Assembly (NCBI GenBank): GCA_023129115.1
Contig: JAGMCR010000012.1
Span: forward strand, 1 to 64,000
Source: Candidatus Iainarchaeum sp.
GTDB taxonomy: Archaea; B1Sed10-29; WALL01
DNA: 64,000 bases
Direction of reading: 5' to 3'
Made by a program: the position numbers and the translations under genes. Below are positions 29,620 to 33,489 of this stretch, piece by piece (position 1 is the stretch's first letter; the number at the start of each line of letters is the position of its first letter). The notes under the pieces are model-generated. The model was not told the origin of the DNA and did not search any database. It was given only the letters and a program-made list of their open reading frames with translations.

Positions 29620-32268
29620 ATGAGGATTGTACAGAAAAAAATCGGGAGCGTTGAGTTCGGGATTATGACGCCCGAGGTAACGCGCAAGATGAGCCAAATC
29701 AGGGTCGTGACGCCAGACACTTATGACGAGGACGGCTACCCGATTGAGGGCGGCCTGATGGACCTGCACCTCGGGGTGATTGACCCCGGGCTGCGGTGCA
29801 AGGCGTGCGGCGCCAGGATGGTGAGCTGTCCAGGCCACTTCGGGCACATTGAATTGGTCAGGCCAGTGGTGCACGTGGGCTACGTCAAAATGGTCTACAC
29901 GCTGCTCAAGGCGACGTGCAAGAGCTGCGGCAGGCTCCTGCTGGACAAGAAGGAGCTCGGCCAGTACAAGGAGTTCATCACCGAAGAAGAGCGCGAGATG
30001 GACGAGGACGCGGCGCTCGACATTATCCAGCGGACCAAGAAGAGCAACAAGTGCCCGCACTGCGAGGCGAAGCAGCCCAGCATCAAGCTCATCAAGCCCA
30101 CCACTTTCTTTGAGGAGGACCAACGGCTGTTGCCGAGCGACATCCGCAGGAGGATGGAGCTCATCCCGGACAACGACCTGAAGCTCCTGGGCATCAACTA
30201 CAAGGTCGCGAGGCCCGAGTGGGGCATATTGACTGTGCTGCCCGTGCCCCCAGTCACGACCAGGCCGTCGATTACGCTGGAGACCGGCGAGAGGAGCGAG
30301 GACGACCTCACGCACAAGCTCGTGGACATACTGAGGATTAACCAGAGGCTCAGGGACAACATTGCAGCCGGCGCCCCGCAACTGATTATTGAAGACCTTT
30401 GGGATTTGCTGCAGTACCACGTCACCACGTACTTCAATAATGAAGTTTCTGGAATTCCGCCTGCGCGGCACAGGAGCGGGCGGCCGCTCAAGACGCTGGC
30501 GCAGAGGCTGAAGGGCAAGGAAGGAAGGTTCAGGTACAACCTGTCAGGGAAGCGCGTCAACTTCTCGGCAAGGACCGTGATTTCCCCGGACCCGAACCTG
30601 TCGATTAACCAGGTCGGCGTGCCGCTGCCGGTCGCGGAGGAGCTGACGGTCCCCGAGCACGTGACCGAGTGGAACATGGCCAATATTAAGGAATATATAA
30701 CAAGCGAGAATTACCCCAAGGCCAATTACGTAATCAGGCCGGACGGCAGGAGGAAGAAGGTCACTGAAGTCAACCGGCCCGACATCCTCGAGGAGCTCGA
30801 GCCGGGATACATCATCGAGAGGCAGCTCAAGGAGGGCGACATTGTCCTGTTCAACAGGCAGCCCTCGCTCCACAGGATTTCGATGATGGCGCACATCGTG
30901 AAAGTGCTGCCCGGCAAGACCTTCAGGCTCCACCCCGCCGTGTGCAAGCCGTACAACGCAGACTTTGACGGCGACGAAATGAACCTCCACGTGCCCCAAA
31001 CCGAAGAGGCGCGGGCAGAGGCGTGGAAGCTCATGCTGGTCCAGAACCAGATTATCTCGCCGAGGTACGGCGCGCCCATCATCGTTGGCGACCAGGACTT
31101 CGTGAGCGGCGGCTACCTGATGACGCACCGCGACATGAGCTTTTCGAGGAGGCTCGCGGAGCGCGTCCTCGTGGCAGCGGGGATAGTGAGGCCCCCGAGC
31201 CCTGACCTGCCCAACGACAGGTTCTCTGGAAAGCTTTTGTTCTCGCAGTGCCTGCCCAAAGGCCTCAACATCAGCTACGAGAACAAGATGCTCCGCAGGG
31301 GCTGCAAGAAGTGCGAGAAGCACAAGTGCGACGAGCACGACTCGTTCGTGGTCATCAGGAACGGCAAGCTCCTCAGGGGCGTAATCGACAAGGTGAGCTA
31401 TCAGGGCATCCTGCTCGACACGATTTTCAGGGAGTTCGGCGCAGAGGCGGCGAGGGAGTTCATCGACAAGAGCACCAAGATGGTCATCGTGGCGATGATG
31501 GACCACGGCCTCACGATTTCGGTGTCGGACTACGAAATCGACGAAGAGACCAGCAAAAAAATTGACGCAGTGGTCGCCAAGTCCGAGGAAGAGGTCAACG
31601 ACTTCATCGACAGGTACCGCAACGGCCAGCTCAAGCACATCCCCGGCAAGACGCTGCAGGAAACGCTCGAGGACAACATCATGGCAATCCTCGGCAGGGC
31701 GAGGATGGACAGCGGCGAGGCCGCTGGCGACTACCTCGGCGACAAGTCGTCTCCAATGATTATCAGCCGCGTCGGCGCAAGGGGCTCGATACTGAACGTG
31801 ACACAGATGAGCGCCCTCGTGGGCCAGCAGGCGGTGCGTGGCGGCAGGGTTCTGCGTGGCTACCGCAACAAGTCATTGCCCCACTTCAAGGATGGGGACA
31901 TCGGCATGCGGGCGCGCGGCTTTGTCGAGCACAGCTTCTACGATGGCCTGCTGCCGGTCGAGTACTTCTTCCACGCAATGGGTGGCCGTGAGGGTTTGGT
32001 CGACAAGGGCATCCGTACCGCCAAAAGCGGGTACATGCAGCGCAGGCTGATTAACGCGCTGCAGGACCTGGTGCTCCGGGAGGACGGGACCGTGCGGGAC
32101 GCGACGGACACAGTGGTGCAGTTCGTGTACGGCGAGGACGGCGTGGACCCGATGAAGTGCTACGGCAACAACGCCATCAAGGTGCGGGACGAGGTCATCT
32201 ATTACGACGAGGTGGACAGGGGAGAAAGCACCGAGTTCGAGGAGACGGGCGGTGATGAGTATGACTAA
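29620..32268 (+). CDS. rpoA1: RNA polymerase subunit A' (Rpo1N)
   Basis: Catalytic YNADFDGDEMN; CPGHFGHIEL. Confidence 0.98.
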   Translation: MRIVQKKIGSVEFGIMTPEVTRKMSQIRVVTPDTYDEDGYPIEGGLMDLHLGVIDPGLRCKACGARMVSCPGHFGHIELVRPVVHVGYVKMVYTLLKATCKSCGRLLLDKKELGQYKEFITEEEREMDEDAALDIIQRTKKSNKCPHCEAKQPSIKLIKPTTFFEEDQRLLPSDIRRRMELIPDNDLKLLGINYKVARPEWGILTVLPVPPVTTRPSITLETGERSEDDLTHKLVDILRINQRLRDNIAAGAPQLIIEDLWDLLQYHVTTYFNNEVSGIPPARHRSGRPLKTLAQRLKGKEGRFRYNLSGKRVNFSARTVISPDPNLSINQVGVPLPVAEELTVPEHVTEWNMANIKEYITSENYPKANYVIRPDGRRKKVTEVNRPDILEELEPGYIIERQLKEGDIVLFNRQPSLHRISMMAHIVKVLPGKTFRLHPAVCKPYNADFDGDEMNLHVPQTEEARAEAWKLMLVQNQIISPRYGAPIIVGDQDFVSGGYLMTHRDMSFSRRLAERVLVAAGIVRPPSPDLPNDRFSGKLLFSQCLPKGLNISYENKMLRRGCKKCEKHKCDEHDSFVVIRNGKLLRGVIDKVSYQGILLDTIFREFGAEAAREFIDKSTKMVIVAMMDHGLTISVSDYEIDEETSKKIDAVVAKSEEEVNDFIDRYRNGQLKHIPGKTLQETLEDNIMAILGRARMDSGEAAGDYLGDKSSPMIISRVGARGSILNVTQMSALVGQQAVRGGRVLRGYRNKSLPHFKDGDIGMRARGFVEHSFYDGLLPVEYFFHAMGGREGLVDKGIRTAKSGYMQRRLINALQDLVLREDGTVRDATDTVVQFVYGEDGVDPMKCYGNNAIKVRDEVIYYDEVDRGESTEFEETGGDEYD

Positions 32269-32270
32269 AC

Positions 32271-32354
32271 CAGCCGAAACCTCAGCTGCCCCGACAATCC
32301 TTGGGGATTCGCCAGGTGGCGCGGTAGACTTGGGGGCCAAGGCCCCCAGAGGCA
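32271..32354 (-). mobile_element. Family A element inserted between rpoA' and rpoA'' with a degenerate 20-23 nt direct repeat
   Basis: Reverse complement closely matches 23509-23595; flanks GGCGGTGATGAGTATGACTAAAC (32248-32270) and GGCGGTTGATATGACTAAGC (32355-32374). Confidence 0.75.
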
Positions 32355-32364
32355 GGCGGTTGAT

Positions 32365-33489
32365 ATGACTAAGCCTTTTGACGACTACAAGGGGAAATTG
32401 CCGGAGTTGATACTTACAGAACTCGAGGAAGCTGCGAAAGGCTTAAAAATGCCGGAAGCCAGAAAAATGCTCGCGAAAGCCCTTGAGCAATACGAGAACA
32501 ACCAGGCGGAGCCGGGGGAGGCTGTGGGCATTGTTGCTGCTCAGTCCATTGGAGAACCCGGCACCCAAATGACGATGAGGACATTCCACTACGCGGGCGT
32601 GGCCGAGCTGGCCGTGCCACAGGGATTGCCGCGGTTCATTGAAATCGTGGACTTGAGGCGCGAGCCCAGGATGCCAATCATGGAAATCCACCTCAAGGAA
32701 AAGGCCCGCGGCGACGAGAAAGCAGTCATTGCGTTCGCGGAGTCGCTTGAGGACGTGGAGATGTCCCAGTTCGCCGACATCGAGGAAAACTTCTCGAAGC
32801 AGACCGTGGCCGTGCGGTTCAAGGAAGAGAAACTTGAGGAGCACGGGATTGACATGGAAGAGGCGAAGAAGCAGATAGAGCGCGAGGTCCGGAGGCGGGC
32901 CAAGGAGCGGGAAGGCGCTTCGCTTGTGTTCGAGCCAGGGTTCTCGACGCTTCGCTCGCTGCGCAGGTTCGCCGACCGCATCAAGGAAGTCAAGCTCTGT
33001 GGCATCAAGGGCATCCGCAAGGCAATCGTCCTGCCGGAAAAGGACGGCTCCGGGTGGTTCATCAAGACCGACGGCACCAACATAAAGGCCGTCATGGAAT
33101 TGCCCGAGGTCGACCCGACGACTGTCTACAGCAACAACGTCCGGGAGGTCGAGGAAGTCCTGGGCCTCGAGGCAGCCCGCAACGCGCTCATCAAGGAGGC
33201 GAAGCTCGTGCTTGACGGGCAGGGATTGAACGTGAACCCTAGGCACGTCATGCTCGTGGCGGACGTAATGTGCTACGAGGGCGAGGTCAAGGCCATCGGC
33301 CGCCAGGGCGTGTCGGGCTCGAAGGCGTCCGTGTTTGCGCGGGCGGCGTTCGAGGAAACGGTGAAGCACCTGCACAACGCGTCCATCAAGGGGCACTCGG
33401 ACAATCTGTCCGGAATCACGGAAAACATTATCATTGGGCAGACCATCCCCGTGGGGACGGGGCTTGTGAAGCTTGGGATGAAGGAATGA
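32365..33489 (+). CDS. rpoA2: RNA polymerase subunit A'' (Rpo1C)
   Basis: [25 protein letters not shown]. Confidence 0.97.

Follow-up and report, generated by a model that had tools for sequence, protein, structure and literature searches.

Probable insertion of a two-hairpin repeat into the rpoA'/rpoA'' overlap of an uncultured archaeon, with duplication of the target

The genes encoding RNA polymerase subunits A' and A'' of an uncultured DPANN-type archaeon are both intact, yet 96 nt lie between them, most of which belong to a repeat that occurs elsewhere in the same genome. The question raised by this locus, which is located in a contig stretch of 64,000 nt (the window), is how a repeat came to occupy the junction of two essential genes while leaving both in working order. 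The explanation favoured here, to which a probability of roughly 0.85 is assigned, is that an 84-nt element inserted into a pre-existing rpoA'/rpoA'' overlap and duplicated its target in doing so.

The rpoA'/rpoA'' junction and its empty counterparts

The features of the junction are as follows.

29611..32268, plus strand: rpoA' (RNA polymerase subunit A'), an intact open reading frame of 885 aa with stop codon TAA at 32266-32268
32248..32270, plus strand: left target copy, 23 nt, GGCGGTGATGAGTATGACTAAAC, from ungapped alignment to the single junction copy of the two same-genus genomes, G001 and G002
32261..32368, plus strand: bridging frame, 35 codons from the old ATG (38 aa from a GTG at 32252; listed as an open reading frame at 32252..32368)
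32271..32354, minus strand: 84-nt two-hairpin non-coding repeat, from blastn to other copies, an inverted-repeat pair, a match to covariance model R1 and a single-strand fold
32271..32288, minus strand: hairpin 2, CAGCTGA-GGTT-TCGGCTG, forming the end of the element next to the duplicated target, from stem covariation in 33 copies
32289..32318, minus strand: extra 30-nt module, CACCTGGCGAATCCCCAAGGATTGTCGGGG, between the linker and hairpin 2, from comparison of copies
32319..32354, minus strand: conserved linker (32319-32331), GC hairpin 1 (32332-32347) and terminal TGCCTCT (32348-32354), in minus-strand reading
32355..32374, plus strand: right target copy, 20 nt, GGCGGTTGATATGACTAAGC, from the sequence and alignment to relatives
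32365..33489, plus strand: rpoA'' (RNA polymerase subunit A''), an intact open reading frame of 374 aa

Pfam analysis of the 885-aa rpoA' product identified Rpb1 domains 1-4 together with positions 1-67 of domain 5, and the C-terminus can be aligned with relatives as far as the stop codon. The 374-aa rpoA'' product carries the remainder of domain 5 (positions 62-265) and shares 90% and 83% identity over residues 1-374 with the proteins of the same genus. The 3' end of rpoA' reads ...GGCGGTGATGAGTATGACTAA (32248-32268) and the 5' region of rpoA'' reads GGCGGTTGAT-ATGACTAAG (32355-32373), with the ATG at 32365; the order of rpoA', an 84-nt minus-strand family element and rpoA'' is therefore present in the sequence exactly as had been claimed in the original prediction.

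Read on the minus strand, the element comprises hairpin 1, the linker, the 30-nt module and hairpin 2. It shares 87% identity over 87 nt with a copy situated after tRNA-Pro on the other strand (23509-23595), and covariance model R1 gives a partial match to it on the minus strand (32310-32361, E 1.2e-7). The 30-nt module is common to the rpoA copy, the tRNA-Pro copy and one further copy (G000:C18:21869-21956), and is also found elsewhere as tandem units. Folded as single-stranded DNA the element has a z-score of -1.92, and the mRNA fold around the spacer is no more stable than that of shuffled sequences (z -0.95). At gathering score, Rfam models matched nothing in the window except tRNAs, with no matches at E<=1 within 32150-32480.

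On either side of the element lies one copy of a direct repeat that has diverged, the left copy being 23 nt long (32248-32270) and the right copy 20 nt (32355-32374). These limits count in a further 2 nt of repeat (AC in the left copy, GC in the right), which leaves an element of exactly 84 nt. Local alignment of the two 30-nt flanks gives a score of 10.5, which was reached at 13 of 5000 random positions in the window when the 84-nt gap was kept. Within the left copy are the final codons of rpoA' with its stop, as well as the Shine-Dalgarno sequence and ATG (32261) formerly used by rpoA''; in the right copy are GGCGG, which resembles a Shine-Dalgarno sequence, and the ATG from which rpoA'' now starts. 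The 3' end of 16S rRNA from one same-genus genome reads ...GATCACCTCCT.

Comparison of the junction with related genomes had been specified in advance as the check on this arrangement, with overlapping genes and a single junction copy as the expected outcome, and this is what the two same-genus genomes contain. Both are without the element at this site; the junction of G001 reads ...GGGGGTGAGGAGTATGACTAAGCC... and that of G002 reads ...GGAGGTGACGGAGATGAATAAGCC..., and in each the stop and start codons overlap by 8 nt as ATGAnTAA. When the window is aligned with G002, the alignments on either side of the junction overlap by 14 nt in G002 and are 90 nt apart in the window, a pattern that, at the level of sequence, typifies target duplication. 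The single copy in relatives and these overlapping alignments bear out the proposal that the repeats are a true target-site duplication. Since close relatives keep the empty site, the locus amounts to a clean natural experiment with a built-in control, the comparison being with these two genomes.

It had further been suggested that the two copies diverged separately, one as a coding end and the other as a ribosome-binding site. The first part of this is borne out, in that the left copy aligns without gaps to relatives and keeps the rpoA' coding frame, whereas the right copy has since acquired indels (net -3 nt) but retains GGCGG and the ATG. Adaptive tuning of the right copy as a ribosome-binding site, however, is not supported; codon periodicity dominates the statistics of ribosome-binding-site spacing across all long open reading frames, and therefore no claim of a tuned right copy is made.

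The element family, its targets and candidate enzymes

Matches to model R1 number 59 in the host genome (G000), 36 in G002 and 8 in G001, with none in the other 38 relatives, and the family is thus confined to one genus among the 41 genomes searched. The core pattern was found in 22 stretches of two assemblies (species genomes) and in seven metagenome contigs, with none in viral contigs, and similar DNA was found in neither plasmid nor phage collections. The family core is ∼60 nt with two hairpins, and 36 copies were located by regular expression. Both hairpins covary, with 85.4% of cells paired as against 66.2% in shuffled alignments and 60 double changes as against 20, neither value being reached in any of 500 shuffles. 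Since hairpin 2 is 17 nt long in some copies and 18 nt in others, which puts them out of register, RNAalifold applied to a MAFFT alignment retrieved the hairpins incompletely, and the family structure was assigned by hand. The ends of the element are sharp: the duplication lies flush with hairpin 2, and the opposite end begins TGYCTC, just after the tRNA end. Terminal inverted repeats, sought by aligning the first 22 nt with the last 22 nt in reverse complement, do not exceed the null expectation (mean 4.3 versus 4.1; three of 33 copies at p<=0.05; p 0.52 for the rpoA copy).

A flanking target duplication was judged real, on the basis of shuffle tests, in 25 of the 36 copies found by regular expression, the remaining 11 having no clear duplication within 450 nt. 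Most of the duplications start 0-10 nt after hairpin 2 with a shuffle p <=0.01; weaker cases are C4:12858 and C14:11515 (p 0.01-0.06) and C15:17925 (p 0.085 in one shuffle test and 0.03 in another). For the rpoA repeat the observed score in this family-wide test was reached by 0 of 200 and 1 of 100 shuffles. Estimated lengths for the 25 copies run from ∼12 to 55 nt with a median of 23, 18 being of 16-26 nt, including the 23-nt rpoA duplication, and five of at least 30 nt, and the duplicated sequences vary from site to site. Palindromic targets are not general, self-complementarity being significant at p<=0.05 in six of 25 cases (p 0.96 for the rpoA target).

The targets comprise tRNA 3' ends, which are the commonest, and gene ends. 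The earlier view that targets are not limited to tRNA is upheld by significant duplications at the ends of protein-coding genes and by two more empty sites in relatives, namely G000:C19:13114, with a 23-nt duplication that is single-copy in both G001 and G002, and G000:C9:44489, with a duplication of ∼50 nt that is single-copy in G002. A third candidate, G000:C1:39060, was dropped, as G002 has an element there too.

Searches for an enzyme were conducted in genomes that are only 84-89% complete. Cas1 (PF01867) was not found in the host genome or 12 relatives, although controls responded, and the same genomes yielded no reverse transcriptase (PF00078), the hallmark expected of a SINE-like retroelement, in which case a host- or virus-derived enzyme could still be responsible. 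The Y1 transposase (Y1_Tnp, PF01797) was not found in G000-G004, nor were rve (PF00665) or the IS110 Transposase_20 domain in G000, G001 and G002, where DDE_Tnp_1 gave a single fragment of 20 bits, below the cut-off. One tyrosine recombinase is present in G000 and a fragment in G001, with none in G002 despite its 36 element copies, and none of the four TnpB-like genes of G000 adjoins an element copy. A 324-aa gene (G000:C7:72088-73062) with helix-turn-helix, NUMOD3 and Vsr/DUF559-like endonuclease features lies 34 nt from an element copy; it was dropped as a candidate insertion enzyme because the query used detected it in none of the 41 genomes other than G000.

Alternatives to an element-specific insertion

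The lack of a detected transposase, together with the length and variability of the duplications (12-55 nt), would also be expected if a staggered double-strand break at the junction, perhaps where a strongly transcribed or structured region ends, had been repaired by filling the overhangs and ligating a free copy of some small, abundant DNA, or one made on an RNA template, with no element-specific enzyme involved. The C9-type target also occurs duplicated in G001, where the insert between the copies is a different one. However, the precise ends of the element, the maintenance of both hairpins by compensatory changes and the uniform orientation, relative to the tRNA, of all 11 copies at tRNA 3' ends indicate recognition of both element and target, and fortuitous capture during repair is accordingly considered improbable.

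Direct repeats can mediate precise deletion, and with just two same-genus genomes available for comparison it might be argued that the spacer and its repeats are ancestral and were lost from relatives by recombination between the repeats. This would be at odds with the wider distribution of the overlap, since eight of 10 informative same-order relatives (the two of the same genus and six more) have a single-copy 8-nt overlap of the form ATGnnTRA. The six further relatives have no copies of the element family, which identifies the insertion as derived, and the family is missing from 10 relatives outside the genus. Moreover, the spacer belongs to a dispersed repeat family, more than 20 further sites of which share its architecture, and an ancestral origin is regarded as very unlikely.

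The possibility that the repeat caused an assembler to misjoin or pad the junction carries as little weight. The element is indeed repeated in the genome, and no single contig of an independent assembly runs across all of it, the k-mer contigs breaking inside the element with an overlap of just 17 nt. Nevertheless, the two pieces from run X1 (31900-32314 and 32298-32800) enter the element from each flank with no differences, run X2 covers the left junction, and no contig skips the element; runs X3 and X4 contained only diverged relatives of conserved gene parts. In addition, assemblers do not invent differences such as those between the two target copies, and the gene order agrees with that of G002.

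Finally, site-specific integration, in which the element would have arrived already carrying a copy of the junction and undergone recombination with the one in place, can be given almost no credence, since the preference for tRNA 3' ends, duplicated in the manner of integrase-borne att sites, and the single tyrosine recombinase gene of G000 have to be set against an element of 60-84 nt that cannot carry each of more than 20 different targets, duplicated sequences that differ between sites, and the absence of a detected tyrosine recombinase in G002 with its 36 copies.

Insertion, known systems and translational coupling

Insertion into the overlap, the preferred reading, would have proceeded as follows. 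After the split from the two sequenced genus-mates, a non-autonomous two-hairpin element would have entered the 8-nt stop/start overlap (ATGACTAA), presumably at two single-strand breaks on opposite strands some two helical turns apart, to which the element was joined and at which the gaps were filled in, with an enzyme acting in trans. The ∼23 nt duplicated in this way would have included the rpoA' stop as well as the Shine-Dalgarno sequence and start of rpoA'', such that the left copy now completes rpoA' and the right copy provides rpoA'' with its ribosome-binding site and start. Insertion inside an essential operon would thus have been harmless, because each gene end is supplied by one of the copies.

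The insertion agrees fully with none of the MITE, IS1630, REP or casposon patterns. The element resembles MITEs in being short (∼60-85 nt), non-coding, multi-copy, taxon-restricted, target-duplicated and mostly intergenic. MITEs, as defined in the relevant part of PMC11602168, have terminal inverted repeats and 2-10 bp duplications made by a cognate transposase, whereas the element has no terminal inverted repeats and duplications of ∼12-55 nt, and no full-length insertion sequence or partner transposase was found (no Y1_Tnp, rve or Transposase_20, and DDE_Tnp_1 only as a sub-threshold fragment; genomes 84-89% complete). Within the literature consulted, the only transposon class with long, variable duplications of similar size is IS1630 of Mycoplasma fermentans (IS30 family), for which the sections on this element give target duplications of 19-26 bp (PMC2853133) and of 16, 23, 25 and 26 bp (PMC3317919), close to the 16-26 nt typical of the present family (18/25). 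IS1630, however, is autonomous, ∼1.2-1.4 kb long, and has 27-bp inverted ends and a DDE transposase, in contrast to an 84-nt element without inverted ends and with no rve found; it targets inverted repeats, as the title of Calcutt et al. 1999 indicates (cited in PMC3317919 and PMC2853133), whereas the targets here are not generally palindromic.

For kb-sized restriction-modification units in bacteria, Furuta, Abe & Kobayashi (2010) described how a unique target, in many cases overlapping a gene 3' end, is duplicated over a long and variable length (>30 bp; 46 to ∼400 bp) with no linked mobility gene, and in the part of that account concerned with the screen no archaeal case survived (PMC2853133). 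The rpoA case is similar in having a long duplication at a gene end and no mobility gene found, but involves structured repeats of 60-84 nt at many sites with duplications mostly of ∼20 nt, here 23 nt around an 84-nt insert. The mode is reportedly the 'insertion with long target duplication' of Nobusato et al. 2000. The REP/BIME and BOX sequences of bacteria are likewise modular, hairpin-forming repeats between cistrons in operons. REP elements produce no target duplication and depend on the Y1 (RAYT) transposase, whereas target duplication is a key feature here and no Y1_Tnp was found in G000-G004. Casposons, with duplications of 14-15 bp and inverted ends, and tRNA-targeting integrative elements share the preference for tRNA and gene 3' ends and the duplication of that end; no Cas1 was found, however, no integrase tracks the element, and the element is too small to encode anything or carry an att site.

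With its absent inverted ends, duplications of ∼12-55 nt and no enzyme found, the insertion mode seems to match none of the transposon classes described. It may be ventured, as a tentative and rather doubtful extension, that the family reveals an undescribed form of DNA insertion in DPANN archaea, in which an enzyme or an RNA-derived process makes a long-stagger cut. The stagger would be about two helical turns and up to ∼55 nt, and the duplication would rebuild the stop, ribosome-binding site and start codon, or the tRNA 3' end, on both sides. A selfish element could thereby spread into essential operons at the points where their genes overlap, even though the genome has hardly any spare DNA, with survival restricted to those operon-internal insertions that keep an open bridging frame, as at rpoA'/rpoA'' and the C19 junction. 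The sharpness of the element ends, of which one is situated just beyond the tRNA end and the other flush with a stable hairpin, would on this view also be compatible with an RNA intermediate whose ends had been trimmed. At the present locus a mobile element appears able to enter the stop/start overlap of two essential RNA polymerase subunits without damage, because the duplication of the target is unusually long and restores the ends of both genes, which helps to account for the spread of repeats in very compact, overlap-rich genomes. The junction also provides a defined substrate (target, element ends and product) for discovery of the enzyme.

The element had been thought to uncouple the rpoA'/rpoA'' overlap. 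The genes are physically separated, as proposed, but loss of coupling does not necessarily follow, owing to the bridging frame, a feature newly noted here. The frame starts at the duplicated old rpoA'' start codon, overlaps the rpoA' stop as ATGACTAA, and its final TGA overlaps the rpoA'' ATG as ATGA, so that coupling may be relayed as opposed to lost. Ribosomes that have completed rpoA' might begin again at the old ATG and read through the element in the bridging frame until the ATGA brings them to a stop at the genuine rpoA'' start. The product has no Pfam match. Two of the three spacer frames are open and ATGA is expected at one third of distances, hence such a frame is expected by chance with an estimated probability of ∼0.2, which is statistically weak and not compelling. 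The junction nonetheless offers a natural construct for the study of relayed translational coupling in archaea.

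The rpoA'/rpoA'' junction and its counterparts in relatives

The rpoA' stop and rpoA'' start in the window are 96 nt apart, with an 84-nt repeat inside this interval. The identities of both genes were confirmed with Pfam, the 885-aa rpoA' product containing Rpb1 domains 1-4 plus positions 1-67 of domain 5, and the 374-aa rpoA'' product positions 62-265 of domain 5. Upstream lie split rpoB genes, and downstream a gene of the L7Ae/L30e family.

Features of the rpoA'/rpoA'' junction (window positions)
29611-32268, rpoA', 3' end ...GGCGGTGATGAGTATGACTAA
32248-32270, left target copy, 23 nt
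32271-32354, 84-nt element, read on the minus strand
32355-32374, right target copy, 20 nt
32365-33489, rpoA'', 5' flank GGCGGTTGAT, then ATGACTAAG

On the minus strand the element comprises, in order, TGCCTCT, a GC hairpin of 7 bp, AAGTCTACCGCGC as linker, an additional module of 30 nt and a second hairpin, CAGCTGA-GGTT-TCGGCTG. The alignment score of the left and right target copies was matched or exceeded at 13 of 5000 random window positions. The region was also compared with independent assemblies of two sequencing runs, X1, which is possibly the source sample, and X2, from another sample of the same study. The X1 k-mer assembly contains one contig spanning 31900-32314 and another spanning 32298-32800, with 0 differences in each, X2 covers 31929-32314, and no contig that skips the element was found in these assemblies. 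The independent contigs end inside the repeat, and the link across the element consists of 17 common bases plus synteny.

RpoA'' was used to search 40 relatives, and each junction was inspected. Both same-genus genomes, G001 (GGGGGTGAGGAGTATGACTAAGCC) and G002 (GGAGGTGACGGAGATGAATAAGCC), have overlapping genes and a single target copy, as had been predicted. BLAST analysis against the syntenic G002 contig aligned window 25685-32271 with 10525-17110 and window 32362-39174 with 17097-23898, the subject alignments overlapping by 14 nt and the query showing a 90-nt gap. The left target copy aligns with the relatives without gaps, and the right copy has one additional T and three bases missing. Among 11 same-order relatives, 10 were informative, one contig beginning within rpoA''; eight of the 10 (loci L002, L003, L005, L006 and L008-L011) have an 8-nt ATGnnTRA overlap, the overlap at L007 is probably 14 nt, its start being uncertain, and L004 has a 9-nt spacer. 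Since the overlap is present outside the genus where copies of the repeat family are absent, the insertion is the derived state. The originally noted junction structure, and its reading as an insertion with target duplication, both stand, and the site contributes an insertion within the RNA polymerase operon, with an empty site in two genus-mates.

The element family and its targets

The family core is ∼60 nt long and consists of hairpins 1 and 2 with the linker (A)AGYCTAMCGYGC between them. A regular expression for the second hairpin located 43 sites in the 1.25-Mb genome, 36 of them with the family linker, and hairpin 1 occurs as four sequence subtypes, every one self-complementary. Across 33 aligned copies, pairing was seen in 85.4% of cells versus 66.2% in shuffles, with 60 double changes versus 20; neither value was reached in any of 500 shuffles, and shifting the partner strand along abolished the pairing signal. 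A covariance model of the core matched 59 times in this genome (G000), 36 in G002 and eight in G001, with no match in another 38 relatives belonging to its family, order, class or domain. A wider scan for exact matches to a degenerate 26-nt core pattern returned 22 stretches among species genomes, confined to two assemblies (one titled as an uncultured archaeal single-cell assembly, the other as a 'Nanobdellati archaeon' MAG, Nanobdellati being the DPANN kingdom), and seven contigs among metagenome records, with none in viral contigs. Rfam, plasmid and phage collections contained no match to the element.

Target duplication was examined in these 36 copies by comparing the 425 nt that precede hairpin 1 with the sequence immediately beyond hairpin 2. 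Duplication was judged real in 25 copies on the basis of alignment and shuffles, typically beginning 0-10 nt past hairpin 2 with shuffle p ≤0.01; values were 0.01-0.06 for C4:12858 and C14:11515, and 0.085 in one test and 0.03 in the other for C15:17925. No convincing duplication was found within the compared sequence in the other 11. Estimated lengths were 12-55 nt (median 23), which makes the rpoA case typical. Of the targets, 11 are tRNA 3' ends, with identical element orientation relative to the tRNA in every case, and the remainder are protein-gene ends or junctions, so that the claim of targets beyond tRNA is upheld. Empty sites were also confirmed at two other loci. At G000:C19:13114, a 60-nt copy is flanked by a 23-nt duplication of a Shine-Dalgarno and ATGA junction, which is single in G001 and G002. 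At G000:C9:44489, three copies of a ∼50-nt target surround two tandem elements; G002 has this target once, and in G001 it is duplicated around a different insert.

Several further arrangements were observed. After five tRNA genes, the element is followed by a partly decayed second copy of the final 10-26 nt of the tRNA, and at tRNA-Glu the duplicate is itself followed by a second, different repeat, so that the insertions are stacked. A further family of repeats, CCAACCCTTTTCCTGT...GGTGGAAAAGCGTTGACGGAAAAG, lies directly 3' of several tRNA genes, and the different insert in G001 is a relative of it. Some element copies lie just 5' of tRNA genes, their hairpin 2 touching the tRNA 5' end. The 30-nt module (GGCGAATCCCnnAGGATTGyCGGGGCACCT-like) also occurs as tandem or near-tandem units 3' of tRNA genes, and is apparently a small repeat in its own right, able to reside in the two-hairpin element. 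Same-orientation copies additionally cluster 1-3 kb apart among small, mostly unannotated genes, a layout resembling a cassette array; the G000:C7 contig has a lower G+C content (51.6%), and its cluster region contains an OLD-family nuclease gene.

Locations of additional repeat arrangements
Window 6970-7130, 9337-9480, 12782-12880, 23494-23600 and 39390-39480: element and tRNA end copy after tRNA-Glu, -Leu, -Thr, -Pro and -Ser, respectively
Window 3734-3800 and 9191-9252, and G000:C4:64000-64060: CCAACCCTTTTCCTGT...GGTGGAAAAGCGTTGACGGAAAAG repeats
Window 39204-39221, minus strand: copy at a tRNA 5' end, with a 12-nt duplication from the tRNA-Ser 5' region
Metagenome loci L121 and L122: copies at tRNA 5' ends
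Window 25358-25560 (after tRNA-Asp), G000:C17:10078-10189 and G000:C2:19704-19876: module units
G000:C18:21869-21956, minus orientation: third copy bearing the module, directly 5' of a GGTGAT-ATG gene start in the same element-end/Shine-Dalgarno/ATG arrangement as rpoA''; no clear target duplication found
G000:C7:66000-74155: four clustered copies
G002:C6:4159-21731: 11 clustered copies on one strand

Mode of insertion

The duplications, together with the sharp element ends, imply that the element was joined to two nicks ∼23 nt apart, with the gaps then filled in. The main alternative mechanism is capture of the element at staggered breaks. Terminal inverted repeats are absent from the element, and its targets are not generally palindromic. 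Profile searches did not find Cas1 or reverse transcriptase in this genome and 12 relatives, Y1 transposase in G000-G004, or rve and IS110 transposase in G000-G002; a search for DDE transposases gave a sub-threshold fragment only, and no recombinase has a distribution following that of the element. A Vsr-like endonuclease gene with helix-turn-helix and NUMOD3 domains, near an element in the G000:C7 region, was found in G000 only among the 41 genomes searched. Four TnpB-like (Cas12f1-like_TNB) genes occur in G000 without a Y1 transposase (C3:10561, C3:79611, C3:102282 and C13:134192), with at most one weak match each in G002 and G004.

MITEs have inverted ends and 2-10 bp duplications (PMC11602168), whereas the present element lacks inverted ends and has duplications of 12-55 nt. 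Duplications of similar length are given for IS1630, 19-26 bp in one case and 16-26 bp in a different strain (PMC2853133, PMC3317919), but IS1630 is an IS30-type insertion sequence, unlike the element. The term 'insertion with long target duplication' is applied to bacterial restriction-modification gene units with duplications >30 bp (PMC2853133). A limited literature search turned up no account of a small archaeal hairpin element that has ∼20-nt duplications.

Reading frames across the junction

Direct rpoA'/rpoA'' overlap has been lost in the window, and the only in-frame rpoA'' start in the spacer is at 32365. The right target copy retains GGCGG five bases 5' of this ATG; the 16S sequence of a genus-mate has ...GATCACCTCCT at its 3' end. 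The old ATG at 32261, in the left copy with the old Shine-Dalgarno, continues to overlap the rpoA' stop as ATGACTAA, and opens a frame of 35 codons through the element whose TGA overlaps the rpoA'' ATG as ATGA. The C19 junction reads the same way, making the rpoA site a second example of such a bridging frame, which may relay translational coupling. This arrangement is estimated to arise by chance about once in five insertions, and is therefore a hypothesis as opposed to a finding.

Within 32266-32367, the rpoA' TAA and rpoA'' ATG share a frame and are separated by 32 sense codons uninterrupted by a stop, such that read-through of the single rpoA' stop codon would yield a fused A'-A'' protein. 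In three more distant relatives (G025 at locus L018, G033 and G034), an open frame of 1124-1262 aa surrounds the RpoA'' match, which suggests that rpoA' and rpoA'' form a single fused gene there.
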